NCBI GenBank assembly: GCA_003344405.1
Contig: NOWV01000121.1
Span: 1-64,000 of the forward strand
DNA: 64,000 nucleotides
Source of the DNA: Trichoplax sp. H2
Taxonomy: Eukaryota
Direction of reading: 5' to 3'
Shown: positions 11,302-59,365 of the stretch, piece by piece
Layout: the number at the start of each line of letters is the position of its first letter
Position numbering within the stretch: position 1 is the first letter of the stretch
Notes under the pieces: model-generated
The model's database searches: none
What the model saw: only the letters and a program-made list of their open reading frames with translations
Told to the model about the DNA's origin: nothing
Made by a program: the position numbers and the translations under genes

Positions 11302-14300
11302 ATGGATGATATGATGAGTTTACGTGATACTACGGAGAGAGGCAGCGATAGAAAAAAGGTTAAATCGCCTAAAATATGTCCGAAAATCCACTCTGAACAT
11401 AATGCTAATGTAACGAAGCGTAATTATTCCGCCCTAGCTGCTGTTGCGGTCGTCAGTGTCTTCTTAATGGTGGCGATATCCACATCTGTACTGACAGAAG
11501 ATACAAATACAGCCGGCTTTTCATCCAATTCGAATAGTCTTAATAAAGAATATCGTCGTGAAATAGCGTCTAATGAATTTCCCTATCGTGATTTACGTCT
11601 ACCCAAGCATATCTTTCCCATACATTACCAATTGCACCTTAGACATGATCTAGACAATCTGATAATTCACGGTCATAGTCAAATTGTTATTGGTTGTACA
11701 AGGAAAACGAATTTTATTGTTTTTCACCACAACGATTCCATCGTTTTATCCGTCAATATAGCTCTATCTTCAAATGTTAGCAACAAGTTACAAATTCGAG
11801 ATAATCGCTACAGCTCACTACTACAACTACGATACCTTCAATTCGACCAAGACTTACTACCAAATGTCAATTATACGTTGACTATTCAGTTTCGAAGTAA
11901 GATCTATCTAAATTCGATCAATGGACTCTATCGTAGTACATACACAGATGGTAATAATGAAATAAGGTTTGTTGATAGCATTACACTTGCAAGTGGAAAG
12001 GATTAATATTAAGTTATTTTACTACTTTTCTATGTCAAGACTTTATTAATAATAACATAATCATTTTATGGTTATCGAGTTTGGATCTAGTAGTCTTTGA
12101 ATAGCAATTTGAGTAATTCAAATAGGATGCTTTTCGTCTACATTGTTCTATTTAATATGATAAAGTTTATTACTACATTTCCTGCTTATAGTCCATCGTG
12201 TCTGTTTTATTTCAATTTTACAGTTAATAATAATTAAGTGATGATTTTCTCACTTTATCAATTAGATATGCCTATGTTACACATTTTGAACCTGTTTACA
12301 CCCGACTTGCATTTCCTTGTTTCGATGAACCGTCTATGAAAGCTACGTTCAAGTTGTTTATTACTCGACCAAGGGAATATGGTGTTCTTTCGAATATGCC
12401 TTTGAAAACTGATCGGATTATTTCCAATAGTAGCGCTGAAGCGGAGTTTAAGACGACTCCTCGAATGAGTTCTTATGTAGTTGCTTATACGATATTAAAT
12501 TATACCCACATTAGTACGAAAACATCAACAGGTATCAAGGTAAATATATAACATAGATGTAGACCACTAGTAGTGATAGGATTATCAATAATTACTGATT
12601 TAGTTAATTTGCTAGTAGAAGTAGAGAGAAATTGAATCATTTTTAAATATAGTCAGTTGAGATCCGCTACTATACCGAGAGCTTGTAGATTTTATATCGC
12701 GTACATTGATCGCCATCAAGGTAAATGTGTACGTAGACGTAGACTGCTATTAATTTCAAGATTACCAATAATTACTGGTTTAGTTAATTTGCTACAGGAA
12801 GTAGAGAAGAAGCGAATCATTTTTTAATATAGTTAGTAGAGATCGGCTACCAGTATTTATAGACTTTGTATCGCATATATTGGTCGTTTTTCTATAGAAA
12901 TAATATTAATTGGGATGGTTTACAAATATAGATCCGCGCTTGGGCAGCACCAGCTAAGATAGATCAAATGAGACTTTCACTCGATTATGGTAGAAGATCG
13001 CTGGAGTTATATGAAAAGCTTTTTGGGGTTTCCTATCCGTTACCAAAACTAGGTAAAAAATTTATTCGACTTACTGCTTCATTATACTTGCGTTATTTAT
13101 ATTAAAGGTTTCGATGTACTTAAGCATTAAAGAATTAAAAATATTTTGTTTGTATTCCTATGAAAACCTGAGTTTTTCTCTTAAAAAATGATTAGGAGTT
13201 TTTTCACATTATGAATAGTATCATCCGTCTAAATTTCGCCTACATATCTTGATTTCTATTAAAATATCTAGACCTTGTCTGTGTCAAGAAAGCTGGAATA
13301 AGTGCCATGGAAAATTGGGGGTTGATCACATTTCCGGAAGAATCTTGCCTTTACTATCCAAAGACTGGTACCAACAAACACAGAGTTACCGCAACTCCAG
13401 CACATGAAATAGCTCATCATGTAAGTGAATATGTTCTTTCCTGATCCTTCTCGTAGTCAATCGATTATGATCTTAATCGGAGCATACTGTAGAGGGTATA
13501 TACTATAAAGCTTTAATCTAAAATTCTCATTAACAATGAGGATAATACAATATATATTAAAGCTTTAACGCTCACATTTCGTTTTATTATGAAAAGTGGG
13601 TTGGAGATCTGGTTTCAATAGGGTGGTGGAGTGAATTATTTTTGAAGGAAGGTTTCGCAACGGTTATGGAATTCTATTCTGCCTATTATCTGAAATCACC
13701 TAAACTTGCAGTAAGATATTATACAACAGAATATTTGTCAGCACAAATAAACTACTTAGCTTACCGTCAAATTTAATTTGCACATAAGATATCTTCTTCA
13801 TTATTAAGATCAAAGTATCTAATTAATAAACTAAGATATTTTACGACATTAGCAATTGCAATTCTTTCGAAATAAATGGGAAGGGGCAATAAAACGTGAT
13901 ATCTCCAGCACTTCTCATAGTGTTTCCACACCCGTGGATACTCCAGCGCAAATTAATGCGATATTTGACGGTATCATTTATCAAAAGGTAACTAAATCTA
14001 ATCTAATAAAAACCTACACTCGATAGAATCTTAAATTTATTCTTTCTTATTGTATTCGTCAACTTCTTCAGTTACAGCTATATTTTAACTGTTCATACAA
14101 TTATACATAGCAGTTAGTATGAAGGACTTTTTTTCCGTCCAGCTCAATAACTTCCATATCATTTTATTCTATCCTACTCTTGCAAACAGCAAGCATGAAT
14201 TGTTTGCTTGCCACCAACAATTCAAATAGCTTAGTTTCAATTATAGGAGTACCTCTTACGTATTTGTTTGTGAGTTTAATTATAATATAACTCCAATATC

Positions 14301-17300
14301 TGAAGACAGAAAATTTTTCACAATTATTTTTGGTTTACGTAAAGAATCAAAGAGTATCCTTTTATTCCCACAATAATATCTATTTCTTTATTATTTCAAT
14401 GCATGCAAGTACTAACATTTCCGAGATTTTATTAATAATTAAGTACATATAACAAGGAACTGTACATTTCTGTTATTATATTAGACTAGTACCACGTTAA
14501 TAATTTCACTTGCAACGCACAATACAATTTCCGTTTGCTGCCTAAGTACCCTACTAGCTAAAAGCTCTTACATTTAATAAAATTTGAGTAATAATACTAA
14601 TATTTCATTTTTAATTTTTCAAGGGCTCGTGCATGCTTAGAATGATAGAACAATTCATGGGTAGAGAAAAGTTTTTCAAAGGAGTTAATCTATATTTAAA
14701 TAAGTTTAAATATAATGCTGCTTTTGGTGCTGATTTATGGAATTCCCTAAGTCAGGTAATTGGGAATATGATATCAAGCAGCGATATTGCTGATCGATAG
14801 CAACAGCTAACTATAAATATTAGAATCATTACTTTCGGTAGTTCCTATATAACAATCGAGGTTCTATTTCATTATTAGGTAACACATTATGATATCAATT
14901 CAATCATGAAGCCTTGGATACATAAGATTGGATTTCCCATTATCACGGCGTTAGTAGACCGAAATCGACATAAAGTAACCTTTTCCGTTTCGTTATATCC
15001 ACAAAAACGTAAAGTTCAGCAGAATTCCATAGATACAAAGAATAGGTAATCAACATAATTTTATATTTCAGTTCTTAATAAGCTAGAAAATAGTCTATTT
15101 TAATTCTTTATATGGAAAATTAAATACGACCATATTCGGATCCATTGCTTGTATTAATCTGTATATAAGGATAACTGTATTGTATGCTTAATATCTTATA
15201 ATAGCATAAATTAAGATCAAGATATCTAATTTATAATATATTCTTTATCGATAGCCGTATGTGCATATTTTTCTGTGATTTTCGATATTTGCTCCTTCAA
15301 TTATACTAATAAAATCCCTTGAATTTTCTTCGGGATTCATTATGATTAACATTTAATAGTGAGATAGACCGTCAGATACCTTTCACCTTCAGAACGAACA
15401 TGGTACACAATGGAAAGTTTTTAATTAAACGTTCTGCGGGTAAGACTACACGTATAGTACCATGTAATTGCAAATGTAGTCTTTTCCGTTCAGAAATTTA
15501 TTAATTTTGAATTCGTTATTAGACTCAATGGCGTTAAAGTCGCCATTTCAATGGTTTAAAGCCAATGTCAACAGTTCCGGATATTACTGTGTAAATTATG
15601 ATCATGATACGTGGAATCAACTTATTCAATTACTGAAAATTGATCATAAGGTAAATGTCCTAATTCTTTACTTTTAACAATTACTTTAACATAATTTCTG
15701 AATGTTCATGAAAAGCAATATATTTTATAGTAGTAATCGTTTTTTCAATTATGTGCTATATTCCATACGTTAGAAATTAAGCCCTTCTGACAGAGCAGAC
15801 CTAATAACCGATTCCTGCGCATTGGCTGAGTTAGTACAAATTTGATACTTTAAAGAGGCTATAAAAAGATAATTCTTAGCATGAAAGTAGCAAATATAAT
15901 ATTCAAATAATGACAGGCTGTATCTTTCTTATAGAATTGGCGAGTTAAATATTAATATTTTCTTCGGTACAACGGAATATCTTATTCATGAGAAAGATGA
16001 ATTACCACGAGATATGGCATACAATTGCCTGAAAAAAATTCGTTCGTCTTTACAAAGAAAGGCTGATCGAGATAATTTACTAGTAAATAATATCGTAAAA
16101 AGCATGATTTTTACTAATAAATAAAGTTATCATAAGATATAGATTAAGCCAAGAATTCCCTTACATAACATCATCTTAGAAACAATTTATGATGTATACG
16201 CGTATTCTTTTGTTAATTCTCGCCTCCGCTTGCGCTATTAGAAATACATTGCATATCTGAAACTAAAGCCACCGCCCGATTTAGACAAAGATAATCTGGA
16301 AATGGATGATTATAGCTTCCAGTTATCTTCCCAGAATGAGTAAGAATATTTATATGGATAGCCGAAAATATAGCAGAATATATAATAGCCGTTTTATTGA
16401 ATTATTTTCTAAGTTAACATCCGCTAATCGTCAATGTTTTTTACATTACTTTTATTCTATCTAATACATTTACTATAAACACAATAGCTCTTTGAATTTA
16501 AAACTTTATCAATTTAATTGCTAGCCAGTTTGATTGTGCTATATAATAAATTAAGTGCTCTAACCTATCTAGCAATAAGGAAGACAGCTTAGAAAAACAA
16601 TTACTAGCTCTTATTCATGATGGAACACCAGCTAATTGGTACAGCTTATTTTACCAGTATAAAATGTCAAAGAGGAATTGGGAAAAAATTTCTATGATTA
16701 AAGCTCTGGCATCAACTCCTCATCAATTCTTAATTAAGAGGTGAATAACCACCATAACAATTATCCTTATGTCAGCTTACAATATATTATTAGCTTATAT
16801 CTAGAAAACTAATACAGGTACATAACGGTTGATTCATTTTATATCTAGCCTATTAGAGCTCAGTCTTACCAATAAAGAGCTGTCTCCTAGTGATCTAAAA
16901 GATATACTAGTAGCAATTAGCCGGAATAGGATTCATAGAAAAAGCCTTTTGAACTTCATGACAGAGAATTGGAAACAATTGGCTGAGAGGTAATTTAGGA
17001 GATAAATGTTTATAAAATAATTGGTAAGCAAGAAAGCGATTTTTATGGTAATGAGATACTTTAACGCTTTATGCAATCACGATCAAATTTTTTCTAAATT
17101 AGGTCATCTCCAGTAACCATGAAACTGATACTAGATGATCTTGTTCAACAACCTGAAATACACGATAATACACTTGAGGTAATTCAAATAAGATTAATTA
17201 TAATCATTCTATAAATGTCAGCAAAGTGACAGAAAGTTAGGTTAGTAATATTATCAAACTGAGATTTATGAATTTTTATGCATGAATATGTTTCATTCTA

Positions 17301-18234: not shown

Positions 18235-20577
18235 GATTTTTTTATTAAATAATGGAAATGATCGACTATAAATTCTTATATTAAGTTCTGTTATTGCCCG
18301 ACATTAGATCGGTCAGGATATTTAATTCATGATACAATTTCAGCTGAACATTTATCTTTATTATAATTTCAGCAATCTACATTTTATTTTAGCCACAGGT
18401 TGTTTATACAGCAGTAACGTTCTCCCTCAACTTTTATTTTAAATTATAGAATAAGATAGGTACACTACAGTATATTGTATATTTGCTTAGCCTTTGAATA
18501 AAGGACGGCTTTTTGAATTAACCCTATTATTAGGAATAGTATCATTTTGTGGGTTTTAATAATCATTCATTTCTAAGTTACATATTATCTTATGTAAATA
18601 TATTTGCTTGCAATTAGATTTATAGATTGCACTTACCTTTAGAACAGTAATGATGTATCTATAAAGATGCTAACCCTCCAAATAAGCTCTATAATAGCAT
18701 CCATTTCCATCGATTAATTAAAATAGTAGTGGGAATACGCAATCTTTTTAATCTAGAACCTATTAACTCGCGAACGAATGCTACCGTTGATCGTCAGTTG
18801 CAGTTCTCACACTATTACTACTCGTCTTTCAATTTATAGTCCAGTAGCATTGACAAAATTTATTATATACTAGAATACCGGTCGGAAATTACAGGAATAT
18901 ATCACGTTTTGATCGCAAATGTAGTATCAGAACTAATGGTATTATTTGTCTTTTATTATATCGAATAAAAGTCTTACCAATACAATAATGACTGTATTTG
19001 AAATATTAAATCATAAATGATCTAAACACAAGCATAAATTTCTTAGTTTGAAGATTCCTTGTTTCACGGTATGCACTGTACTTTATTTTATTAATATCGA
19101 GTAAAATTTCCAATGTGTACTTAAAATAGATCATCTTGAAGGCAATTCGATTCGTATCTTAATAATCGAGTATTTAGATTTCTGACAGTCCCTAAAATGT
19201 CAACAATTGCCTCTAATTAAGGCTAATTTATTTAATTAAATGAACGTTTAACCTTTCCGCTCAAGTGAACGGCCAGAATCTAAAATGTAATATCAATGAC
19301 TGTATAGCGTTGGCAAAGCATCCAATCGCTTCATTGATACCATCTCAAACAAATTATTCTAAAAGCCTTTAACCTAAGAGATATTTAGTAGTTGATCTTG
19401 CATTGAGTACGATATCATAGCTATCCCTCAAGATCATCATACAACGTCATCAAAATAGGATTTTCATGATCAGTAAATTGGCAAATACAAGATGTTTCGT
19501 TTTACTAATATTATTTTACGTATATTATATAAAGAACGAGCTACGAGTATGCGAGTTTAAAAATTCCTGGATAAGGTTAACTGTCTTGTCGCAACTCAAC
19601 CCGAAACAGAATTTTAAGGCATAAATTTTGATAGACCAAGTAAAATAAACATTTTAATGGCCTAAAATTTTTTCAATTTTGTTAACTTTCATATTATACA
19701 GTTAGAAACGATAGAGTAGCAATTTTAAGTTTTCTAGTTTTATCATTATACTGTAAGGATTCTTTAAAATCTACCGTAAGAACTTACTTTAATAAAATTT
19801 AATGAATTGAAACACTTATTTCCGTTTAAGTATGTATTAAACTACAAAGAGATACGAAACAAACAGCCCTTCTTTCTCCTTGAACGAATGTATTTATATA
19901 CGAATCCCTCACAGTACAATAACAGATACACCATATGCTAACCGACTATTATCAACTTGTATATTTTAGAGTCTCAAGATTCAGTTTCTTCTACTGTTTA
20001 AAGTTCAGTGATCTGAATTATCCTTTTTTTAAATATTTATGATAGCTTAACGTTCAGTATGACAATAATTAAAACCAAATAATTTTTGAAACAGTAGTCG
20101 CAATCACATTCCTTTCGTGTTCGCTTACATATTGTTTTCCACTTAAACAACTCTATGCAATTTGATATGCCAAAAATTTTTGTGTACAATTATAAGGTAT
20201 ACAAGTGAATCAGTTGGCCGCATGGTAACAACTTCGTTTATTGTCTACGTTAAAATCAACATCGTTACTGATGTAATACAGATATACTAATAACTATACT
20301 TTAATCAAGTTAGATATTGTTCTTCGTATAATATATTAGAATCGACAACTATAGATAATTATCCATTACGTCACGATATCCAATAGTAATATTGAACAAT
20401 AAAATCCAATATCCAGTGGTGTTAAAACAATTTTCAAAGAGATGGTATAATTTTCTATCCATTATACTTGGTACTAGCTATTGCTATAACGAATTTACTC
20501 ATAGCTTTAGTTTTTTAACTAAGTTACTCGATGTTTTAGAATTTCTCTCAAATACTAAATTACAGAAAGCAAGTAGA

Positions 20578-20778
20578 ATGCCTCGTTCAAGCGCAGCTTA
20601 TGTCGTCGTGGATAATATCGCTGATTTTCAGCCAAAATCTGTTTCACGTCGTGAATCAACGGTCCAATTCTCGCCAAATCACACCAAAATGCATTTAATT
20701 ATCGCGTATATTACTGTTGCTTTGACAGTTTCCGTGGTCGTTGGGGTTTTAATTTATCTTTTCCAAAACAAAAAGTAA
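20578..20778 (+). CDS. 66-aa microprotein with a C-terminal transmembrane helix (paralog A), unknown family
   Basis: MPRSSAAYVVVDNIADFQPKSVSRRESTVQFSPNHTKMHLIIAYITVALTVSVVVGVLIYLFQNKK*. ATG has A at -3. The TM segment is 12/23 identical to the ORF at 27809, with synonymous codon differences. Confidence 0.75.
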   Translation: MPRSSAAYVVVDNIADFQPKSVSRRESTVQFSPNHTKMHLIIAYITVALTVSVVVGVLIYLFQNKK

Positions 20779-23700
20779 TATTAACAAGATTACATAGCAA
20801 AAATATCAATTCGATTGGTAAGTCTATCATTTAAGCCTTTACTGAACAGAGAATATGGCTGATTATTCATCTCTACTAAGATATCAGTTTCTGGATAAAA
20901 ATATAAGTATTTACTTTCAAGTTTAATGAAAACTTGAAAGCAAACTTAGACAATACGAACGGAAAAAAGTTGATGTCTTATCTTTTCGGAAACGTTTATT
21001 CGTAGCATTTGATTTACTTGGATTGTTTATTGTCTACCGATTTTATTTGGCCATATGAATTTTAACCTTTAACTAAACAATTGACATCTGGTGTGTATTA
21101 ATGCACATGCTTGACTATTAAATACTGTACCATAGCACTAGTTAAGATGTGTAGGTCAGGATCGAGAATTTTAAATAAAAATGAAAAATGTTAATGAAAA
21201 CCATCTTGATATCTACACACGACAAAGGCGTTAAGAATGGTGTAGATGATTCACATGATTATAAAATAGAAGTTCAGAAAGTCGCCTGATTTCGAAGAAT
21301 AAATACATTGACGATATTATAATCGTCGAGTTGACAGTATGCGAATTAGATTTCTTTAACAGCAGACAGACATTGGATCCGAAGTTTAAATTGATAAAAT
21401 CAAATTTATTGGAAGCCTGAAATACTCCGTCGTATCAATCTCAAACTGTGAAGGTTCCATTCTAGTACACAGTATAAGAAAAATGCAATCATTTAAAGGA
21501 AATTAATTTATTTCATTTGGTGATAATGTAATCAGGAATGATATCCTTCATAAATATAATAACATTTTAAGATGGTATATTAATTAGGTAATTTTGGTTT
21601 TGAAATCAAAATATATGATCATGTAAGATATGAAGGTTAATTCGCATTGTGATCTCAACTTTGTCTAAATGTGAGTTTTTATTTGTCAATTATAAAATCA
21701 GACATGGAACTTATATCGGTATCGTAATTCTTTTAAGGTGTAAACTTGATAAGAGAGTAACTTAATAAAGCTTCTGTATTACAGCTTATCAGGACGTTCC
21801 ATATTAAATTTAACTCTGTAGTCTTGAGATAACTTAATAAAATAAGTTTTAACCCGTAATTGTTATTATCATTTTTTTGTTTTCTGATATCTGTACACAA
21901 AGTTTACTAATAAAAAACGGTAATTCTTGTTATAGTACTATAATAAATAAATAGTAATGCTTCCATATAAAGCTCTCTGTTATATAAAAATAAGATCTAG
22001 ATTTTTAAAAGCAAGGATATTGGCATGAAACTAATATTGAATTATCATTTAATTTAATAATGATGCGATTTTGTGTATCTTTCATTTGCTGTAAAATGAA
22101 AGTAAAGCTTTTTAAATACTATTTGTGTTACAATACAAATAAATGCTACTTGCATTTAATGTGTGCAATTTTAAAATACTCCATCAAAGGTAGCAATTAG
22201 CGTTCAACTTACGAATAGCTTCGGTTATATTGCTATTCTTTAAGATATTTGATTCTAATGGAAGACGAACTCTGACAAAGATAGTAACAGATTGGCAATC
22301 CTCCTTATATAATATTGTGAATATAAGTGGACAACTCAGAGTAGAAATATTTTATTGTATATCTGAGAAATGTTGTCGAATATTCTAATTACAAATTATT
22401 GATCAATTTCATTGCTAGTCAGAATAAATCGATAGAGATTGATAACCTAAACGGATTTTAGACATAAATTTCTTCTTGCAATTAGTGAAACAATCTCCAC
22501 CGCTATTTGTTATTGTACTGATGTAGATGAGATAATTACTTTAACACTTTGTAAATTTTATAAATAATAGAAACCATTATAATGCTCTTGTTTCAGGTCA
22601 TCACACCTCTCGTTCAATATAAGTTCTTATTACCAGAAAAGTATGTTTCGAAGGTTATATATATACTGATTACAAAACGGTATTGCTATTTCTTGGCTGT
22701 AGAATATTAGTGTTGTCGTATAGCATTTATTACATTTAACTTGTAAACCTAATGTACTCGTATATGGGCTGTAATAGTCTCAGAATATTTTACATGCTCC
22801 TTTCTAGTTGGTTCAATATACCATTTTTAGTGTAAATTATATTGACGATATTACGTGGAAAAAATCAAGAAGCTCCAATCTCGCCCTACAACGTGATATA
22901 ATATCCTCGTACAATATAATACAAGCGTAAATCATCTCTAAATTCTATCTACTTAATAATCTCAATCTTCAAAAGTCTTTGACTTCATAATAAATTAGAA
23001 TTTGGCCACTTTTATTCTCGTCAGCTATATTATTGGTACTTCGTAAATGCATATTAAGTACAATTTACCCCTCTAACTATTAGTTTACCTGGCATGAAGC
23101 ATTCATTTCAACCTGATATACAGTTTGATCAAGAAGTAGTATTACTAAGCTGCTTTTACTTTATTCTGATCCGATCGAAATTGATTGATGCGGATTATAA
23201 TTGCTTGAAAATAAGTCTATCATAACGCTTTATTAATTACGAATCGTATAACAGTATTGCACCGGCCATTACAAGTGATTTAATAACTTTTTAAAGTTTC
23301 ACTCTATTAAAGGATACATTCAATTCGTGCATCCTATCATGGAGTTAAAAAGACTTCAAAGATTTAGAAAGTTTTTTACCATATAGTAGTGGGTAAAATT
23401 TTAAATTACTGAATAATGCAGTCTCATACATTCAATAGTGCATTACTATACTGTACCGTGTAAATGCAGTCATAGATTAGTGTGTGTACTGCATCATCTA
23501 CCATAGTAGTCCATGATCCAAAGTACAATTCAGTAGAGTGATAACCGTGATACTTTGCGTACTTGTTCACTAGCCGAACAAAGTAGAATCTTACTACACT
23601 AATTAATACCAGACAGTCTAGACCTACATCTCGTGATACTTTGCTTACTTATTTACTGACAGTAAGTAGAATATTAAATAATTAATGAATTAAGGTTAGG

Positions 23701-23982
23701 AAGTAAAGTTAATCAACTCTATTATGCAATTGTATCCTATGCTTATGGTCCGTGAGTTGCATGCTAGTCTACATGTACTACTGTAGACTAAGTAGGATAA
23801 CAATCAATCACGATATGCAGATGATTGAGGATCAGGATAAAATAATTATTGCAAATACACACTACGAGATCCCGAGATAGCTACGTAACATGTATATGTA
23901 TTACAGCAAAAGCAACACTATTTAACAGTCTTGAATTTACACTACCTATCTGCAACTACAGTGCTTCATACTATATATGACA

Positions 23983-24173
23983 TGGCTAAAACCCGATCTC
24001 GGTTAATATGCATTCAACCTGCTAAAGCCCGAATTGAAGGCAAAAGTATTACAATTTCGGGCTTTAGCCGGTTATTATCTACTGTACTCGGTTAATATGC
24101 ATAATAGCCGGCTAAAGCCCGAATTGAAGGCAAAAGTATTACATCTTCGGGCTTGTGCCAGTTATTATCTACT
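23983..24173. repeat. Two 89-bp tandem units, each containing an inverted repeat, plus a partial upstream arm
   Basis: CTCGGTTAATATGCA starts units at 23998 and 24087. Unit 1 has GCTAAAGCCCGAA...TTCGGGCTTTAGC arms around TTGAAGGCAAAAGTATTACA; unit 2 has a degenerate right arm. A partial GGCTAAAACCCGA lies at 23983. Confidence 0.85.
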
Positions 24174-24206
24174 TTACTTTAGTGTAGTTTACATGCTTAG
24201 TGGTAC

Positions 24207-24532
24207 TGCACATATCACACTCGTTTTAGTGTACAGTACAGTATAGTAGATAACTTATTCTCATCCATCAAGGTACTGTGAAAGAAAAAGGCTTAATCTC
24301 CATGCTATTGCATCCCATTTTCCATTACTTTTCATTAGAGACCCTTAGGGTCTGTACTTTTCATAATATGCACATATCACACTCGTTTTAGTGTACAGTA
24401 CAGTATAGTAGATAACTTATTCTCATCCATCAAGGTACTGTGAAAGAAGAAGGCTTAATCTCCATGCTATTGCATCCCATTTTCCATTGCTTTTCATTAG
24501 AGACCCTTAGGGTCTGTACTTTTCATAATATG
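24207..24532. repeat. Near-perfect 162-bp tandem direct duplication
   Basis: TGCACATATCACACTCG...CTGTACTTTTCATAATATG starts at 24207 and 24369; I see only two substitutions. Each unit contains the palindrome AGACCCT-T-AGGGTCT. Confidence 0.92.
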
Positions 24533-27500
24533 AAATAGTCTAATCTTGTAGCACGCCTTCATCACCCCTCGAATAAAGCCTCTTTTAAAGACATATCCTC
24601 TCTTGCTATTCCTTTTCCCTTAGTCCCCTCACTTGCTTACTACCCTCGAATTATAATCATGGTTACTCCTGACCTGCGTGGAGTGCTTCTTTTACTTTTT
24701 GGAGCTAGATATCTGATAGAACTCGTTACATCACTACATACACGTATGTCTTGTAAATATCATACATTCTGCAGTAATAAAATCAGTTCTCTAGCAAGCT
24801 TAGTGAACTCAATAATACTACAGTAATAAAGGTTATGGACAAAAGGTGGTAAAGCTAGTACAGGATTGCAGAGGCTACTTGTATAGCTCACTTTTATCGA
24901 AGTCAGATAGCCACACAAGTTATTATCCCCATCGTCTGGCTATTCCAATAGATTACTAATGCACAAAGAATTGTATACTGCTGAAACCGACCGTACATGT
25001 ACCTGTGACTGATGATTTGTATTACAAATTTCAAAGAGATAAAATAACTCAATACTACAGTAAAAATGAATAGAAATATCAAGAACCAGTTGATTAAAAT
25101 TGCGATGATCTGTAGACGTAAAATTTAAGCCAAAATTGAGAGTAAATGCCTTGAAAGTTTATAGATCTAATTAAAGGCAATATTATAGCTGAACAGCTTG
25201 CAACCGATCTAGAGAGCTTGCTACACCCCTTTACTCCATAGTGTATGGCGATCATAGACTACTAGATGCATTTAGTAATCCATGGTAGCGGGGTAGGAGA
25301 GACAGAGATGGAGAAAGACAATGAAGTCGCTATAGCAACAGTGACATCTTTGTCAGATTGCATAATTTAGTAACTCCGAACGATATTATCCTAATCGTTG
25401 TATCTTCTATAATGTATTGCTCAGTGATTACTGAACAATTGCTTTTTTTAATCAATTCTGGCCACAGTGTAGTGTAGAGCAATTGAAGTCGAATCCTACC
25501 ACAGCGTCCGGATTAGAGATCAAAGTCTTAACATCTTTGAATAGAGAACACGTATCATCAACATTGGCCACTTGTCAAGACTAAAAGTCTTAATTTTCTT
25601 CATCATTTGTAGATGAATGATCCAAGCTCTGTTCGGTAGTGTTTTTTTTTCTTCTACAAATATCGATATCTTAAATGAAGAACGAACGCATTTATACTAA
25701 ACAATCTCATACTCACTTGATTGTGGCCTACATCATTGTGGCTGTTTTGATTTGTATCATGATAGGCTTACTGGCTAGATTATTTGCTAGACCAGTATAA
25801 TATCATGAAATAACTGCTATGGAGCAAATATAAAATTGGTCATAAAATTTTTAAGTTAGCGTGGATTAGATACGAATGGAACTACCCATAAAAAGATTAA
25901 GATGTAAAACAATTGGCTATTATTAAGCACCAATTATTTGAGTTTGATATACCGTGGCTGAACTCCTATTAATTTTTTAAAGATTATTTGTACGATCACC
26001 TTCGGCACTAAAATGTCGATATTAATGGATATCGATCTAAAGTGGCAATATGATTCTTGTTATGGATATAAGCACGCCTTTAAGTGCGTACCGTATCTCT
26101 CTAATTTTTCTATCAAAGAATTTACTCGAGGCAGATCAATCTTACCAAGGTTTTTTAACGGAAATGATGACAAATTGATTTTTCGAAAGAAGTCGAAAGA
26201 ATAGTTATTTTTCCGAGCCTAAATAATTGTTATGTTAATTAATAGATAATAGTAGTATGTTTATTATCGGTATATGGTAGTTAACGGTAGTGAAGATAAA
26301 ATTATCATTTAATTAACAGAAAGAACGCAGTAAGATAACTTGTACAAATTTTTAGGAACACATCAAAGAACTTTCTACGTATGTAAGCCTAACGATACCC
26401 TTAAAAGCTGGATGATTTTTTAATCTCCACTATATACTTACAGTGTTAATGTGGAAGTACGCTTTGAACTTGAACTGAATGCAGGTATAAGTACATAAGA
26501 GAATTGTAGTGAGAACAAGAGTAAGTGTATATAATAGAATTGATTAAATCTGGAAGCTCACAGCTAAGTCTAAATGCATCTTAGGATTCTATAAGACTGT
26601 TTTGTTAGACCAACAGCAATTGTAAAACATCTACTTAGCTCCTAATTTAAAGAAGTTAAACTTTAGTCTGTAACTTTATACCTACGTGAAAGCTTCTTAG
26701 CTTAGGTAAATTTTTTTACCAACTCTGTTTAAATAATTAGGTGAACTATATCGTGTTTTAGTTAAATTAATAAAGAGTATTTCTGTAGAATTGCTTTAGA
26801 AGTTATAATAAGAAAATTTGAAATTGCTTTATTGCAGCAATGTGTCTAAATAAATCCTCTAGTTTAATAGCCCCGAGTCTTTTAAATAAGTACTCATTAA
26901 GGTGATTGATAATCGTATACATAAATTTAAGTTCATATAATGTCAAATAGACTCATTTTGTTGTCATTTCTTGAGCCATCATAAATCGTTCCAAAATGAG
27001 TCGACAATTCTATATCTTTCACTGCTATAACTATAAAATCTGCGTTTACGTTGGTCTAAAATAAGCACATATCTATTATGCCATGTCAAAAATAGGATGC
27101 AGACGATACTTAGCATTGTAGCACTGTAGCTTGTACTCTGAATATTCAGTATAATATAACCAACTGTATTCGATGTTATTTACATAATTGCATTTAATTT
27201 TAAGATATGCAGTTAACCAAAGAATTTTATGAGTATTTAAGTTCCTGTCAAATATTTCACAAGTAGCCTATTAACTTGATTCTACTGTATAATAGCACAT
27301 TGTAAATATTCTCAATTCTTAATAGATCTTGCAATGAAATATTCTCACCTTAGGCATTAACACTAGATTAATTTTTTTATTTGATAAGTTGTGAATTTGA
27401 CTTCATACATTTTAATTAACTTTGCTAATCTCATAGAAATTGTAGTGCCTCTAGCTGTGTAACCCGGTAGCTAGTGTTCTCTCTTTATGCAATAAATAAG

Positions 27501-27808
27501 TAAGTCGTAAGACTAAGAATTTTTATCAAAGACTAACCAATAGCATCAGAAGTCAATTGTTTTGACTAATGATGCGTGTATCAAATCTCCTATTGAGTGA
27601 ATAAATAATCACTGCTGCCGATTGGATAAAGTTATGCTACGGTGTCTATCAAGGATTCATATTAACTATAATATTTTCATAATCATTCCCTATTTTTTAA
27701 GTCCCTGACTGCCAGAATTTTCCCGTTTCTATCACAAAAAGAAGGAAAAAAGAATTAAAGTTTTTCAGCTAACAATTAAAAACTGGGACGACGTTTCTTT
27801 GGAACAAA

Positions 27809-28021
27809 ATGTCTTCAATTCAGTATCAGAATATAACTAGTGAAGATTTCATTCCTGCTGCAACTGTAAAAATTACCAAGCGTTACAGACGTAGTAGAAG
27901 AAGACCAATGGTAAAGAATGAGGTGCAAGTCCATTTAGTTGTAGCGTATTTAATAGTAGCGCTGTTTGTCATTGCGATGATTGGATTATTGGCGTATCTG
28001 TATCGAGAACAGCCGCAATAG
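27809..28021 (+). CDS. 70-aa microprotein with a C-terminal transmembrane helix (paralog B), unknown family
   Basis: MSSIQYQNITSEDFIPAATVKITKRYRRSRRRPMVKNEVQVHLVVAYLIVALFVIAMIGLLAYLYREQPQ*. Start context ACAAAATG; basic patch before the TM helix; clearly paralogous to 20578-20778. Confidence 0.78.
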   Translation: MSSIQYQNITSEDFIPAATVKITKRYRRSRRRPMVKNEVQVHLVVAYLIVALFVIAMIGLLAYLYREQPQ

Positions 28022-29723
28022 CATTTAGCTTCAATAAGAATCGTATACTAAACTGGGTGATGTAGTAATAGTTAATTAATATAACCGTATGAATCATTCC
28101 ACAACATCAGTGCTTATCTTCTTTACGGTTATATTGCAGATATAATTGCAATAAGACTTCTCTCAATAATAGTAACCTGGATATAGTAACACCATAGCTT
28201 TCTTTTCCAATTTCTATTTCGATGGATTGTAATTGAAAATATGATAACTAGAGCATCCGAAACGTCATACTTATACCAATATATTTATATTTATCAAACA
28301 TAAACTGCAATGGAAGGTTTAACTTCTAGTTTCCATCCAAAGCTGTCTTTCTTACAATTTCATATCAATCTAAATATAAAGCACCGTAATGTCTCTTACA
28401 ACATTTTCAAGATTATCCGATTATTACAGCAAATAATTAGATAAAAAATAGTTGCCTAATACTTTATACTTATTAATTACATATTACAAATAGACTATAT
28501 TTTGAGGCACTTCATTCTTATTTCAATCAGAACTTTTTTCTGATAAGAATAAACGATTAGTGCAATCGTGCTGACATTGTTTTAAGTGCGATCAGATCTA
28601 TCAATAAAAGATTGCGGGATGATCACTTTGCAATCCATCCCAATTGAATGCAGTTTATAATGCTACCATTATTACGACTGTATTACTTTGTATATGGATT
28701 ATGTCAACATGTTTACTTTGTCTTCGTTTTCATTTCGATGGCCAAATATTAGAAATACATTGAATTACAAAAAGTTTTTGATTATGTATCAAATTAACCT
28801 GCCTAGCTTTAATTTTAACGAATATTCTTTTATCTTGATATTGAAATATAATATAAATCTTTGTAGCAACATTTTAATAGTGATAAGATTATGAGTGTAT
28901 TCTATCTAAAACTGAATTTTAATAGAAATATTTCAAAGGAACTGCATCATTCATTTATCGACTGTACGCAGAATTTAATAATGTAGCAACACACGAACAC
29001 TTGAAAGATTATATTAACGCTCGCCAAGATTTTATTGATAACCTGTGAGAACTAAATCATTACAGTAAAACGGTCAAATAGTTATAGCAGACTTTCACAA
29101 CCCTTAATTATATTGATAAACTAATCCTAATTTTAGCTAATGTGCTTTAATATGTAATACGCTTTCTTTTATGGTTATGTGGTAGATTTTTAACTAATGT
29201 ATCGGAATAAATTTCGAGATTGTTATGCAAATGTGATAAACTGCTAGCTTTAAATAAATCACTTAATGATTTTTTAAAGATGACTGATTAACATTACCGC
29301 ACTGCACAACTTCATTACCTAACAATCATAAATGAAGGGTTAGCAGATATGTTCGTAAATTGTTATTTAGTTTAATAATGGTACGCAGCTTGCTATATAC
29401 AGCACTATATTTGTTCAAATACTGAGGTGTGCTCATGTAATTTCAATAAGACAGTGAGATCGTAAAATCAAACTTGATGATGGTCATTATTACGAATTTA
29501 CGATACAGTAGATAATTTTAGTGCTACCAAGTTTATCGAAACAAGTTTATTTCATGTGCGAGTACGCCAGAGAGAAAATATTACAGCCTATACCAGTACC
29601 AGTAATCTAGTATACTGTTAAGTGGCACCTTGAACAAAGTCTTGTTTAATAGCGGATAGAAATAGCTAAGATTCGAAGAGTGTTTAACTGATACAGGTAA
29701 TGATTTAAACGGAATAAAATGGT

Positions 29724-29743
29724 NNNNNNNNNNNNNNNNNNNN
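29724..29743. other. Assembly gap (20 N)
   Basis: Run of 20 n characters. Confidence 1.
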
Positions 29744-30052
29744 AACGGTCAAATAGTTATAGCAGACTTTCACAACCTTAATTATATTGATAAACTAATC
29801 CTAATGTTAACTAATGTGCTTTAATATGTAATACGCTTTCTTTTATGGTTATATGGTAGATTTTTAACTAATGTATCGGAATAAATTTCGAGATTATTAT
29901 GCAAATGTGATAAACTGCCAGCTTTTAATAAATCACTTAATGATTTTTTTAAAATGACTGATTAACATTACCGCACTGCACAACTTCATTACCTAACAAT
30001 CATAAATGAAGGGTTAGCAGATATGTTCGTAAATTGTTATTTAGTTCAATAA

Positions 30053-30457
30053 GGGACATCTCTACGCTTATATCTGTCGACTATAGAGTCCGAAACTAGT
30101 TCGTACCTGTTTCAGAAATGTTCAACCATTGTTATATTCAGCATTAACGGTTAACAGTGAAGTTCTTTAACGCGCAGTATAAGTCGTACGGCGTATACTA
30201 TACATTTTTCAGTGGCTATACCCTACTCCCACAGGATTATGAAGTAAAAATTACAAGTACATACAGTAAGCGAAGTATAACAAGCGTGGGCTCGCCAGAT
30301 ATTTATTTTTCGCTACATAATATCGCTATTACCGTCAGTCCTAAGTTAGTCCTAATTCTTACTGCATCATAACTACAGATTTGCTTAACTACACGTAGAA
30401 CTCTTATTAAAAGCCAATTCACTATCGCGAGCTAATTTCAAAGAACATAGCTCACTC
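30053..30457. mobile_element. 405-bp segment present in only one copy of the duplication, flanked by AATAA direct repeats (possible insertion)
   Basis: Empty site ttagttTAATAAtggtacg (~29367-29385); filled site ttagttCAATAA[GGGACATC...GCTCACTC]TAATAAtggtacg. No clear terminal inverted repeats and no poly(A) tail. Confidence 0.45.
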
Positions 30458-33400: not shown

Positions 33401-33682
33401 AGTTGGTGTTACGAAGCAGTTGACTTTCCAAAGAATAATATTAAGAAAAATCATTAAATCTTAACCCTGTATTTTTTAGTTCTTCTTTTTTACCAAATGG
33501 ATGATAATTAACTTACACATATTGTAGTCTAAGAAATAATTTGATTTCATTAGGCCGCCCTTATTAAATTATTTAAACATCTTCGCATAAAATCATCCTA
33601 GTTTTCTGTTTAGTCAATTCTTTGATTTATTTGGTTATTAGTACTTTACTATTTAACCGAAGAAACCAAACTTAACTTCACT

Positions 33683-36600
33683 ATGGTATCCCAAACTAAG
33701 TATCACCAGTTACCTAAGGAAGATGAAAGCAAAGAGAACGAAGGAGAAATGGGCGAACAGAAGCAAGGTCAAGTGACTATTAACTATTTTTGTGGTCGTC
33801 GTCAAGTACCACGGAAAGACTTCTACTTGATCATGGTTACTTTAATCGTCGTCTCAATGATTCTACTTGCGCTGTTTATTACCGCCGCTGCTCGACATCA
33901 TAAATCTCAAAGGCCATCGCAAAAGCACGGACATTCAAGAGTCACTCCATCACCGACTTTGCCTTTTCCCTATAAAAGTTTTCGATTACCGGCGTACATT
34001 CGTCCAAACCATTATTTAATTGACTTGCGCCCGAACTATGATCAGCTAACAACTGCTGGTAACGTTTCAATCAACGTTACCAGTAGTAAAAAATCGAATT
34101 TTATTATTTTACACAAGAAACATGTCAACATTCTTGATGTTAAAGTCTCAGAATTAAATAGCAAGAAAGATATCAAAGTCATAAAAACTGATGAATATCA
34201 CAAATATAATTTCTACTACATCAAGTTAGAACACTACTTACAACCTAATAAAGGCTATCTTATTCACGTAAGATTTACAAGTCAAATAAAGACTAAAATA
34301 CTTCATGGATTGTATCGCAGTCATTACCGAGCAGCAAGCGGAATGACCAGGTTATATATCTCTTATTAAATTATATTTTTTAATTGACGTATGTTATTGA
34401 AGTATGTTAATACTAAATGACTAAGATTGGAGTATAGCGTTTTATTAATTTGATTGAACTTCAGTTTCTTCAGTGCAAATAGTGTAGCGAAAAATATAGC
34501 TCTATTATAGCATTACTGTTAATATGCGATTTATGTTAACTATTTTGCTCCTGCTAGCAGAAGATAATAATTAAAGTTTCAAATTGTTATATTCTACAAT
34601 AAATTACTGTACCGTAGACCGTAGATAAATATAATCATTCTAATGTAAAGAATACTGATTTCATCTTTTAAGTTCGGGTAAATTTCCTATCTCCCACGAC
34701 TACTTCAAGTTCAAACTACCGATCATTTGTTTATTAATTTTACAGTATAATGACCACACTCGTTTCGGCAGTGATAATTGTTTGATTATTCTCAAGCTAT
34801 GATTAAATTCTGTACCGTCCATACTCCCGTAAATTGTTAAGCATATCTTCATTATGATGGATTATATTTATGATGTAAAAATGGTTATATATATTTATCT
34901 ATGTTATAATTACAATTGCTCATTATAAATCGTTATATCACATTAAATCATTATAAGACTCACACTAGATAGACATTATTAGAGGGGAAACCTGTAAGAA
35001 AAGCCTGAAACGGTAGGTGATTTACTTTACTAATAAGTATTACCTTTTTCTGTTACAGATATTTGTACAGTACCCACTTGGAAGCCACTCACGCTCGAGA
35101 AATATTTCCTTGTTTTGACGAACCAGCTATGAAAGCAATTTTCACACTGACAATCACTTCACCTCCTGGCTATACAGCTATTTCCAACAGTGAAATTCAT
35201 AAGAAGAAAGTTTTACAGAATAATTATACATTAAATGAATTTCATCCTACTCCTCCAATGAGCACTTACTTAGTTGCCTTGGTAGTATCTGATTTTAAAA
35301 ACCTTGAAGGAAGAACTATAAATAACGTTCGCGTAAGTCAATCTCAATTTTACCATCATATCCGTTTTCCTGTATCACATAATTATTGTTTAAATTTAGG
35401 TTAGAACATGGGCAAATCCGCTTATGTACAAGTATACGAACTATTCGTTACATGTAACAATGAAGGTCATCCCTTTCTATGGAAAAACGTTCGGGGTAGC
35501 CTATCCTTTGCCTAAGATGGGTATATATGGTTTACTTTGATAATTTTACACGTATTAATTAGCTCATTTACGTCTATTTCGGTATTAAAGTATATAGATT
35601 TATATGTTTCTTCTTATATAATATAATGTAAAGACTACTAATCAAATCTTATTTGAATTAGATCTGGTTGCTATACCGGAATTTGCTGCTGGAGCTATGG
35701 AAAACTGGGGATTAATCTTATACAGGGAAACATCAATGATATATAATAAATGGGTTAATACTTTGCGTACAAAGCAGTGGGTAACTGTTGTAGTTGCACA
35801 TGAATTAGCACATCAGGTATAGTACAACCTATTTTCGTATTTATATTAGATGAACCTAAATTCATTTCTTTAGGTAGGGTATATTATAATTTTGCTTAAT
35901 ACAATCTAATTAGATCACTATTTTCTGGCTTTATAGTTATCTTAAATTGTATTGTACTAAGTGTTCTTTCTGCTTAAGTTGTATTACTGTACTAATATAT
36001 ATTATTTATTTTCTACTGAATATCTTTCTTGATTTATTATACTAGTGGTTTGGAAACTTAGTAACGATGAAATGGTGGAGTGATATTTGGCTTAATGAAG
36101 GTTTTGCAGCCTTTATGGAACATATTGGAACAAATCATGTTGCCCCTGAATTTCAAATGGTAGAATAATATTTACGATGAATTTTGTTAATTTGCTGTTT
36201 GGTCATATATAATTATGGACTCTTAGGACAATAATTGTTATTTATCTATCTCATGTTCTAACTAGTATGTTGTATACATAGATGAAGCAGTTTCTATTGC
36301 GAAATTTTCGTCGGGCACAGTATGCTGATAGTCTTCCTACGATACATCCTCTTGTATCTACGGCAACTAATAGCGATCAGATCGAGTCCTTATTTGACAG
36401 TATTTCCTATAAAAAGGTAGTCAAGACAAACTACTTTGTCGAAGAATTACAAACTGCTATTTCATAGTATAATTCTACAATATTATGCTGTGTAGTCATG
36501 CTATCTATTGGCTAATGTAGGGAAGTTGCCTTATAAGAATGGTGCGGGATTATTTAGGCATAACAAACTTTAATCAAGGAATTCGCCATTATTTATCTAC

Positions 36601-39600
36601 ATATAAGTATAAGAATGCAGATCATAATAACCTATGGCAGGCTCTACAATGGGCAAGTAAAATTTGATTGATTTTATTTTTATGATGAAGGGATTAGGTA
36701 CACCTGTTTACCATCTGGATATATACGTACAACATTTACTAAGTTGAGGCTTTTAAAATAATAGGCTAGCCATGGTAAAGTTAATATCTCTTCGATGATG
36801 AGTACTTGGGCCTTGCAACCTGGCTATCCAGTAGTAACTCTTGGAAGTCATAATAACAATGGTACAGCAACTATTAGTCAGCAAAGATTTCTGTCCGTTC
36901 GAAAATCGAAATCTGGGGATTACGGGTCGATAACTGCCTCGTGAGTAGATGCGGTCACTATTTTTATAATATTCAAAGAAGTCTTTCAAGAATTAGGCAG
37001 CAACATAGCATTAGCTTAAAGTTATTACGAAGATACAGTCGGAAATGCAAATTGTTTATATATCTACGTGCTATAACTTTCTATCTATTTCGATAAGCGA
37101 TACTAGCGATGTTTGTACTTCGATCTTGGCACGTGAGATTTAAAAATAAATTAGATATTAAATTCGCTAATATTAATATTATCTTATCATTTTAACCAAT
37201 ACCAGGTCCCTTTGGCATATTCCCATATCATTTCAGACAAAAAATAACCGGACTGGTAAATTCATGTTGTTGAAAAGGGCCGGTATGTTTCAAGATAACT
37301 AAAATACATCAATGCAATATATATATCAATTAACTATCGGTATCAGCCGGATAGAATTTCGTAGCTATTAACTGCAAATCATTAAATAAACATAAATTGT
37401 AACTTGGTAGCTAGTACTACCTTTTAGAATGTTTTCATATATATTTGATCAAAGCAGTGAATAGCCAATTTGCACCGTGTGCATAATTGCTAGGCGCTAT
37501 CAACCGAGTATTCGTGAATACTAGTAGTATTTTCTAATTTGTTTTAATAAATCATAAATGTTTATTTCAGATATTTTTCCGTGGAAAAATACTGATGGAT
37601 GGATAAAATTGAACTCTAACCAAATCGGCTATTTTACTGTTAATTATAACATCCAAAATTGGAATTCGCTGACAGATCAGTTAAAGAAAGATTTTTTGGT
37701 AATACATTGAAATTGAATAAATACAATAGCTTTATGATAGTAAAATAGACCATCAAACTGTTCCATCTATTTAAAATCTAGGACCAAAAATAAATACATT
37801 TGCGATTATAAACTAATACATAATAGTTTTATATTTATACTCGTACGATAGTATGATGATTTATTTGGGAAAAGGTATTCCACTTGCGTTATTATATTCT
37901 TAAAAATTGAACTATAACGCCAACTAAATCGGTATTAAGCGAAAATTATTGAATTTACGAACGAAATTAGACAATTATCGCTATTACCGTAAAAATTGTC
38001 GGAATGTTTATAAGTTATTCATTAATTCAGTATGATGACCAAATTATTGCGACTTTTTGATATTACAGGTGTTCAATGACATAGATCGCTATCAGCTCTT
38101 AGGCGACACTTACATGTTAGCTAGGTATGTGAGAACATATTGCGGATATTGTAAGATATGCAATGCATTAACCAAACCGGGAAACTGTTATCAAATAGGC
38201 CTGGCCTGCTAACCATAAAAGTCTTCCTTAATATGACAACCTACCTATTTAAAGAAAAAAATTATCTTCCCCTATACGCCGGTTTATATAGTTTAAGCGC
38301 AATCAAGCAGGCGATGTCATATAACAAAATTATCCACCAAAAATTCGAGGTAACTGTTTAATGATCAAATGTTAAATAGTTTGCTTTCCTATAAATTTTT
38401 AAAACCTTGACGTAATTATTAAAAAGATCCAGAAAATAAACTACAGTGCATAGACTGCCATTATTAATAATCGATTATTGATTTCTAATTACCATTTATG
38501 GTTAGTAGTCAAATCCTTATTATTGATCTATTATCGTAATAACCAAATCTAGGCATATATCTATCGTTTGATACGACCTCAGATTCAGAGATTAGGCTGG
38601 AAACATCAAGCTTCGTATTTGCAGAGGTAACTAGATTTTATTACTTGTCTTGTTTATCATTATAATTATTAGCGTTCTCTTATTGATATCTACAACTTCA
38701 TGAAGGACTGCAGTTTACTATCACTTTTTTCATCTATAGTTTTCGCGGACTTGTATTTTGATTAATTACTTTATAATCCATCTAGTAAATTACAACATCT
38801 AATTTTGGTCTATGGCGTTCACTACAACGATAGTACAATAAAGTCATATAGTTTATCAGCTTATCATCAGTGGGTTTATAATAATACCAGGTAAGACTTA
38901 ATAATTGCGTATCGCTTGTAGTTTTTAAATTGAAATCAATAATCCAGAATAGGTGATAAAGCTATTGAAGTAGTTTAATCTCAGTAATTCTAAGGATTTA
39001 TGAATACAGTTATTATATTGTAATTGAAAAATTTTATATAAGATAATTTTATATTAGATAACTTAGCGCGATTGTTTCGTATCATAGACTGCCTACGAAA
39101 TTTCGTAGCCTTATCCTATCGGTAGCTATGAAATATGGTGGGCAACCGGCAGAAAAAGTTATGATGGATAAATATTTACATACAAGTTCATCATCTATGA
39201 AACGTTTATACTTTGCAATAATGGCTACATCAAAAGATCCTACATTTCTAAACAAGTATGGAATATAGCTACATAATTAAATAAGCAAATAAGTTTGTGA
39301 AATGAACTGAAAAATGTCTTGTAATAGCAGAAATTAGAAATCTATTAAATGTTAAAATTTTAATCGATCAGAGCAACAGTGCTTCTATACTTTTATATTA
39401 TCTATTTTTGCTTAAGATTTCAATCTTTTCTTGGCTTTTTAGGCTATTGGTCATGACTTTGGATCCCAGTAAAGTAAGAATTGAAGAAACTGTAACGTAT
39501 ATGAGTTCTGTTGCTAGGAATTCTGTCGGATCTAAACTCTGCTGGGAATTCTATAAGAAGCATTTTCAAATTATTCATAAAAGGTATGCAATTATTATTA

Positions 39601-58895: not shown

Positions 58896-59365
58896 AGCGT
58901 ATTTTAGCCGCAGTAGATATGTAGTTTAGTACTTCGTCTATGAAGGAACATTACCACCTTGGACGAGTAGCTTCGTGAAAGTACTATTTAATCAATTTTA
59001 TTATGATCATGGAAAATATAGTTTTTGGTTACATCCCACAATGGATTTTAATTTATAAATGTTTTGCTAATGTCCTCTGTGTATCCGATGGTAATATCCT
59101 TGATTCCGATAAGATACTTGATTTGCAGAATGCGTTAATACCAGGTAACCTGGACCCGGTTTTCCTAATCTTTTGAAAATGTTTGCTTAAGTAATTGTGA
59201 AACTTTATAACTGATCTAATCAATAATTTTAACCTATCAAAAATGTTAAAGGATACAATACCAGAATCGCTAAATATTTACAGTATCAGTTTTTAAACTT
59301 GGGTGAAACTTGATCTATAAATTGCCGTCCAATATTAAATGATTATGCCTTTGAAATATCAAAAC

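Follow-up and report, generated by a model that had tools for sequence, protein, structure and literature searches.

A stretch of 64,000 nucleotides of Trichoplax sp. H2 (contig NOWV01000121.1, positions 1 to 64,000; hereafter the window) carries, in a 16-kb gap between two M1 aminopeptidase genes, three short open reading frames (ORFs) whose predicted products share a hydrophobic helix close to the C-terminus. All three lie on the + strand and are numbered, in the order in which they occur, ORF1, ORF3 and ORF2. Our best reading is that these mini-ORFs are three independent single-exon small genes belonging to one old family that is conserved at the protein level. That they form a real protein-coding family of tail-anchored membrane microproteins we consider highly probable; the fuller statement, in which independent tail-anchored microprotein genes are combined with an inferred mechanism, we hold to be likely. 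An earlier note on this DNA, made from its letters only, had described a pair of paralogues and had found no other gene in the stretch. The pair has become a trio by the addition of ORF3, which had been missed, and to that extent the stretch was not empty; 10 other ORFs (67–95 aa) chosen from 19.4–32.3 kb gave no Pfam match.

ORF1 (20578..20778, + strand) encodes 66 aa followed by a stop codon. Its tail is polar and contains Y8, D16-F17-x-P19 and the sequence S-R-R-E-S; the helix begins at H39 and is followed by five residues. The ATG is the first in-frame ATG of the stop-to-stop frame 20359–20778 and has A at −3. We note a two-codon upstream ORF (ATG TTT TAG) at 20531–20539, within the putative 66-nt leader. 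ORF2 (27809..28021, + strand) encodes 70 aa and a stop; its tail contains Y6, D13-F14-x-P16 and a polybasic stretch, the helix begins at H42 and six residues follow it. The start codon again has A at −3 and the 60-nt leader is free of ATG. ORF1 and ORF2 thus have Y-x-x-hydrophobic and [DE]-F-x-P in common near the N-terminus. ORF3 (25675..25800, + strand), which sits between them, encodes 41 aa and a stop. It has the same helix with just 13 residues ahead of it, lacks the Y…DFxP motif and stops five residues beyond the helix. In all three the helix starts with H-L-x-x-A-Y-x-x-V and ends with G-x-L-x-x-L. The coordinates, lengths and translations previously given for ORF1 and ORF2 were reproduced exactly, and the features described were all recovered: DFxP downstream of an N-terminal Tyr, an Arg patch, and a stop five (ORF1) or six (ORF2) residues past the helix. 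The signals AATAAA and ATTAAA are too common in this AT-rich locus to place the 3′ ends.

The resemblance between the three mini-ORFs exceeds chance. An all-versus-all blastp comparison, which took in the 1352 stop-to-stop frames of at least 25 aa in the window, matched ORF1 with ORF2 (40.6% over 32 aa, E 3.5e-5), ORF3 with ORF2 (57.7% over 26 aa, E 1.9e-6; ORF3 frame 25675–25797) and ORF3 with ORF1 (42.9% over 28 aa). When the 23-residue helices are aligned without gaps, ORF1 and ORF2 are identical at 12/23 positions, a count that had been reported before and proved exact; the corresponding values are 11/23 for ORF1/ORF3 and 15/23 for ORF3/ORF2. The in-register BLOSUM62 scores of the helices are 62–75 and were equalled, for any pair, by none of 20000 within-helix shuffles; the observed identity was matched by 1/20000 shuffles for ORF1/ORF3 only. 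Compared with the 419 hydrophobic 23-mers of the window, the ORF2 helix scored 75 and 67 with its paralogues and 33 with the next segment, the anchor of aminopeptidase gene A. A family hidden Markov model (HMM) was constructed from six sequences, namely the three mini-ORF products and the relatives P0003, P0004 and P0005 described below. Run against the 2876 window ORFs of at least 15 aa, it matched only the three mini-ORFs (E 1e-33, 1e-32 and 2e-19); the value for ORF3 is 2.3e-19 and that of the best non-member in the window 0.28. The count of three members applies to the 64,000-nt window. No other paralogous ORF of at least 25 aa was found among the three loci by blastp. The similarity is also confined to the ORFs: as the earlier note had stated, the flanking DNA is dissimilar, and blastn (word size 7, loci ±1500 nt) returned just 15–44-nt matches with E 0.089–0.31.

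The pattern of substitution indicates what has been conserved. Identical residues are written with different codons at 7/12 positions for ORF1/ORF2 (the earlier count was exact, down to each listed codon pair), at 9/11 for ORF1/ORF3 and at 13/15 for ORF3/ORF2, and the helix DNA of ORF2 and ORF3 is identical at 39/69 bases. By the method of Nei and Gojobori over 27 codons, the proportions of synonymous and nonsynonymous differences (pS/pN) for the paralogue pairs are 0.74/0.35, 0.85/0.43 and 0.97/0.31. The ratio of nonsynonymous to synonymous rates (dN/dS) is 0.14 for ORF1/ORF2; dS is not computable for ORF1/ORF3 and ORF3/ORF2. With pS of 0.74–0.97, the paralogues have reached saturation at synonymous sites, which bears out the description of the family as old. 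The description of it as subject to purifying selection also held, given pN of 0.31–0.43, the dN/dS of ORF1/ORF2 and an ORF length that is kept in relatives of 83–87% identity. Since the codons have diverged, pS exceeds pN and DNA similarity ends at the ORF borders, we conclude that the duplication is old and that it has been under selection at the level of the peptide; the sequences bear the signature of protein-level purifying selection.

The same data bear on the idea that the transcripts are non-coding, the ORFs untranslated and their conservation due to some cause other than protein. Conservation tracks amino acids and not bases, as the ORF2/ORF3 comparison illustrates (13/15 codons differ, 39/69 bases are identical). 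It halts at the ORF borders, and three relatives keep open frames. A constraint acting on RNA would not yield this amino-acid-level pattern. On the other side stand the low depth and strandless nature of the RNA contigs described below, the want of a match to any known protein family, and a coding case that comes from sequence comparison. We regard a non-coding origin as exceedingly unlikely, and retain the interpretation that the mini-ORFs encode proteins.

Relatives were sought by a word-indexed search of 5.8 billion proteins with ORF1 and ORF2 as queries. Two are closest to ORF2, P0003 (71 aa, 87% identical) and P0004 (71 aa, 83% identical), and one to ORF1, P0005 (65 aa, 85–86% identical). 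All three begin at the same Met, are in the same frame and end within 0–2 residues of the same place. Their changes cluster in the middle of the helix. The tail of P0005 leaves 36/38 of the ORF1 tail residues unchanged, and in the ORF2 group (ORF2, P0003 and P0004) the segment from F14 to N37 is entirely invariant. The helix positions that never vary among the six sequences, H1, L2, A5, Y6, V9, G18, L20 and L23, mark both of its ends. Neither ORF1 nor ORF2 had a self-match in the 5.8 billion-protein collection, although the product of the neighbouring aminopeptidase gene C is present there as a named Trichoplax protein; it follows that ORF1 and ORF2 are not annotated in the sources of the collection. 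The suggestion that gene callers would miss them is in this way borne out, the two queries having returned relatives only. The DNA of the relatives was looked for in metagenome contigs scanned with the ORF2-group and ORF1-group patterns (142 and 135 stretches, respectively), none of which encoded a relative. A profile of the three peptides was also searched, with no limit on protein length, against a set of 1.84 billion representatives and gave four matches at E ≤ 1e-3, none of them an aminopeptidase. P0006 (136 aa, E 3.6e-5) was rejected as a member, as it has two repeats, several hydrophobic segments and a different build; P0007 (382 aa, E 7.8e-4), internally repeated and also of different build, was rejected too. 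Their matches to the profile are confined to or lie beside one hydrophobic segment. In the titles and abstract openings of the literature on Trichoplax and placozoan micropeptides, small ORFs and tail-anchored proteins there is no such family; newer re-annotations of placozoan genomes could already include the genes. So far the family appears to be restricted to placozoans.

The predicted architecture is that of a tail-anchored protein, as proposed from the outset. Each product has one hydrophobic 19-mer near the C-terminus (Kyte–Doolittle 2.7–3.2) followed by 5–9 residues; counted as a 23-residue helix, the segment is followed by 5–6 residues in all three. The parts ahead of the helix are polar and basic and contain no second hydrophobic segment, and hence no N-terminal hydrophobic signal, as judged by hydropathy. 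AlphaFold2 predicts for ORF2 a helix at residues 34–64 of 70 with a predicted local distance difference test (pLDDT) score of 93–95, and a cytosolic part that is mostly disordered (pLDDT 42–63). Eight basic residues are found within the 18 that precede the ORF2 helix. A homodimer prediction for ORF2 scored 0.02 against a mark of 0.32, in a run without controls, and speaks neither for nor against a dimer. Likeness to generic tail-anchored proteins such as Sec61-beta, cytochrome b5 and the SNAREs lies in a single helix no more than about 30 residues from the C-terminus, no signal peptide and a functional part that is N-terminal and cytosolic. This is a topological class and not a homologous family, and the mini-ORF products are much smaller than most of its members. 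Pfam searches with the three mini-ORFs (E ≤ 1) gave only unrelated sub-threshold families and no regulin family. A profile search of the PDB (E ≤ 10) gave only FlhB (0.48), which is unrelated, and the IGF1R helix (8.2). In the ESM Atlas the best score was 0.78 and none reached 0.8, where 0.9 marks more than a lead.

Contigs of three RNA runs from one study (X15, X16 and X17) and of run X1 were mapped on 19500–39499. Run X1 behaves as DNA, with a depth of about 63–78 in most bins and no splice-type GT..AG joint. An RNA-covered stretch surrounds ORF1 at 20512..21939; it is collinear with the genome, and its strand is not given by the contigs. It consists of X17 20512–21939 (record 21), X15 20575–21546 (record 9) and X16 20750–21520 (record 15). 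Cover begins 3–66 nt ahead of the ATG in two runs (X15 and X17), and the contigs extend, unspliced, 742–1161 nt beyond the stop (20776–20778). A second collinear stretch, likewise of unspecified strand, surrounds ORF2 at 27749..29043, with X16 27749–28415 (record 16) and X17 27866–28282 (record 23) over the ORF and X16 28502–28983 (record 17) and X17 28509–29043 (record 24) past it. Here cover begins 60 nt ahead of the ATG and extends 261–394 nt beyond the stop (28019–28021), again unspliced. Over ORF3 the RNA depth is 5.4–12.8 in bin 25503–26169. As the bin 19500–20166 has zero depth in 3/3 RNA runs, DNA carry-over can be dismissed as the source of the cover over the mini-ORFs. The earlier note had allowed that ORF1 and ORF2 might turn out to be first exons spliced to downstream coding exons; this did not occur, the contigs passing unspliced through both stops.

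These contigs also speak to a broader form of that idea, in which the mini-ORFs open one or several unrecognised multi-exon genes, with a spliced form that the three RNA runs capture seldom or not at all. Contigs drop rare variants, those at hand come from three runs of a single study, 6 joints and 48 loose ends exist beyond those listed, and low RNA cover runs across much of 20.2–31.5 kb. Collinear contigs, though, represent the assembled and therefore dominant form. The frames of the relatives end within 0–2 residues of the same place, the three loci share neither another paralogous ORF of at least 25 aa nor flanking DNA, and the 10 other ORFs of the stretch are without a Pfam match. We think a hidden multi-exon gene improbable and prefer single-exon genes.

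A more specific alternative derives from the neighbours. M1 ectopeptidases are type II membrane proteins in which the first exon encodes a basic cytosolic tail and an anchor helix, and the mini-ORFs could be alternative or relic first exons of the M1 aminopeptidase genes around them. Three such genes lie in the window, all on the + strand. Gene A starts at about 1795 and has a Peptidase_M1_N match in exon 1. Gene B (11239..16993), the upstream neighbour, was identified by Peptidase_M1_N (Pfam, E 1.1e-14); its first exon is within frame 11239–12003 and its last matching exon frame is 16826–16993. Gene C, the downstream neighbour (33683..39499, continuing to about 40412), was traced by Pfam and by splice joints. 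Exon 1 of gene C (33683–34350) encodes a cytosolic tail and an anchor helix of its own and reaches into the ectodomain. The three genes match one another exon by exon in the all-versus-all blastp, with Peptidase_M1_N in each exon 1. Gene C corresponds to TRIADDRAFT_37002 (P0008) of Trichoplax adhaerens, exon 2 being 100% and exon 1 98% (160/163) identical, which places the window in Trichoplax or a very close relative. We note that the initial Met of TRIADDRAFT_37002 falls within the anchor helix, at residue 59 of the gene C frame, and that the in-frame ATG upstream at 33683 gives 58 extra N-terminal residues, which supply the cytosolic tail and the opening portion of that helix. With RNA contigs beginning at 33350–33602, the public model looks to be N-terminally truncated.

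The mini-ORFs and the M1 (aminopeptidase N-type) signal-anchors are alike in having a basic cytosolic tail, a single helix and a cytosolic N-terminus, and in sharing strand and cluster; the position between tandem M1 genes, and GT dinucleotides where each ORF ends or close by, would also suit a first exon. They differ in that the mini-ORFs have no ectodomain and stop 5–6 residues past the helix, which, being near the C-terminus, would need post-translational and not co-translational insertion. Against a first-exon origin, the candidate GT sites leave differing codon phases, and the RNA contigs run unspliced through the ORF1 and ORF2 stops. Gene C is crossed by 14 joints of intron size, seen in each of the RNA runs (13 GT..AG and one GG..TA). 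Among the joints listed (15 of 21), all 14 RNA joints are inside gene C and none reaches a mini-ORF; the remaining one (24415 to 32741) belongs to DNA run X1 alone. Gene C transcripts begin at about 33350–33602, the contig depth over exon 1 is 150–218, and none of the listed joints leads into the gene from upstream. Exon 2 of gene C takes up Peptidase_M1_N only from profile position 115 of 186, so a mini-exon joined to it would lose about 110 profile positions of the domain. The sequences themselves are distant: mini-ORF helices score 22–33 with the anchors of genes A and C, against 62–75 within the family, and local alignment to the tail and anchor of gene C exon 1 gives 28–35, compared with 84 for ORF1/ORF2. 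The family HMM reached no more than 7.1 bits on 120 M1 aminopeptidases, three from Trichoplax included, and no fused form occurs among the 1.84 billion representatives. Relics of aminopeptidase exons were looked for in 17.1–33.6 kb, and no frame matched at E ≤ 1e-3 (blastp of window frames). Neither sequence nor the listed splice joints link the mini-ORFs to a neighbouring aminopeptidase. The first-exon reading is already largely refuted and we judge it very unlikely; independent small genes remain the better description.

Several observations weigh against this description or temper it. The contigs carry no strand, ends or reliable level, which makes an antisense or non-coding transcript possible. 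Contig depth over the mini-ORF loci is 2–18, compared with 150–218 over gene C exon 1, and all three RNA runs come from the same study. Beyond what is listed there are 6 joints, 48 loose ends and 222 contig pieces, and a minor spliced form is possible. The X17 contig has 11 unmatched letters ahead of 20512. In the case of ORF3, contig-end values put the apparent start of the RNA contigs within the reading frame, at about 25721–25746, and position −3 of the ORF3 start codon is T. Runs X15, X16 and X17 all carry G>A at 27979, which changes Met57 of ORF2 to Ile at a position invariant in ORF2 and its two relatives; this is a conservative polymorphism between strains. The mapped contigs show 134 differences from the window in all. 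The idea of a conserved helix face was dropped, as the helical moment of conservation (0.18) was matched by 1885/20000 shuffles. Finally, what connects the mini-ORFs with the aminopeptidases is position alone.

How the proteins might work can be approached by analogy. A helix so near the C-terminus emerges too late for co-translational insertion, and the mini-ORF products would be inserted after translation, by a guided entry of tail-anchored proteins (GET)/TRC40-type or related route. The positive-inside tendency, to which the eight basic residues ahead of the ORF2 helix would conform, would place the N-terminus in the cytosol. As the helix ends are conserved and the middle is free to vary, the invariant residues at both ends may form a contact with a different membrane protein. 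Each paralogue has a tail of its own that hardly changes among orthologues, and this suggests that each tail has a separate role in the cytosol; the tails may tune the helix contact or the location of the protein. The R-R-E-S of ORF1 may be a basophilic-kinase-type site, and Y-x-x-hydrophobic of ORF1 and ORF2 presumably a sorting-type motif. The products may in this way serve as small regulatory or adaptor subunits of a regulin-like kind, a mechanism that we offer tentatively and consider possible but rather doubtful.

The regulins (phospholamban, sarcolipin, sarcolamban, myoregulin and others) resemble the mini-ORF products in size, at tens of residues, and in build, with a cytosolic N-terminal tail and a single C-terminal helix that leaves very little on the luminal side. 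The ORF1 tail bears an R-R-x-S site, of the phospholamban kind. Tandem paralogous small ORFs overlooked by annotation, and a presumed helix–helix contact, are further points of likeness. The difference is that there is no similarity by sequence or profile (Pfam and PDB), and H-L-x-x-A-Y-x-x-V…G-x-L-x-x-L is not known as a regulin motif. Regulins are presented as a class of SERCA-binding tail-anchored micropeptides (PMC8396278, PMC9338278). This class appears to be the closest working analogy; in view of the Pfam and PDB results, membership in it is not supported.

The location of the mini-ORFs invites one other explanation, namely that their products are substrates or cofactors coupled to the flanking membrane peptidases. 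An M1 aminopeptidase needs a free N-terminus, and the predicted N-in orientation would put the C-terminus, not the N-terminus, on the catalytic side of the peptidase. Genomic position, between tandem M1 ectopeptidases, is both the argument for such coupling and the sole link; contig depth differs more than 10-fold from that of gene C, poor measure though it is. A precedent does exist in the neprilysin–sarcolamban pair, in which a metallopeptidase of the membrane is reported to shorten a tail-anchored micropeptide on the luminal side (PMC9338278). We would nonetheless assign coupling of this sort a decidedly low probability, and keep to independent microprotein genes as the working description.

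The remainder of the window contains other features of note. Low RNA cover (depth about 1–18) extends over much of about 20200–31500, beyond the mini-ORFs, and in each of the three RNA runs a contig matches the window only rightwards from 22969, with 93–255 unmatched letters leftwards. There may be other unannotated transcripts or strain differences in this region. A 162-nt tandem duplication (98–99% identity) is located at 24207–24530. Contigs of DNA run X1 join or break at 24228–24415 and 32741–32763, and loose ends of the RNA runs fall there too; the two regions, 24207–24530 and about 32741–32773, probably represent a dispersed repeat or mobile element, or else a site at which strains differ in structure. 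A 20-N assembly gap (29724–29743) lies within 29102–30778 and is bordered by near-identical direct repeats (280 nt, 96%, spacing 674; 300 nt, 98%, spacing 1083), and the DNA-run depth falls to 20 in the bin of the gap. The structure of 29102–30778 is probably an assembly artefact around the repeat. Further downstream are a talin gene with Talin_middle, Talin_IBS2B and I/LWEQ matches (about 48000–59000, + strand) and a gene with KH and Tudor domains (60900–63000, − strand). Rfam at gathering scores gave no match in the whole window.

What is new here is an apparently lineage-restricted family; its kind, tail-anchored membrane microproteins, is known. Genome annotation routinely overlooks small membrane microproteins, and three conserved ones are found in a 16-kb gap of an early-branching animal that had been taken as gene-free. 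A general lesson is that a mini-ORF with the look of a type II anchor, even beside an ectopeptidase gene, may be something other than an orphan first exon. Adding the gene models to the existing placozoan single-cell atlases would point to the cell types in which the proteins act, and the combination of saturated synonymous divergence with conserved helix ends offers a clean entry point toward the membrane partner. A more speculative proposal, which we think unlikely, is that placozoans have a regulin-like family of their own, whose helix ends would dock on a transporter or receptor, or on the flanking type II anchors, and whose tails, through the R-R-E-S site, the polybasic patch and Y-x-x-hydrophobic, would switch the activity or trafficking of the partner. 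If true, one of the simplest animals would possess a layer of regulation by micropeptides that is peculiar to its lineage.

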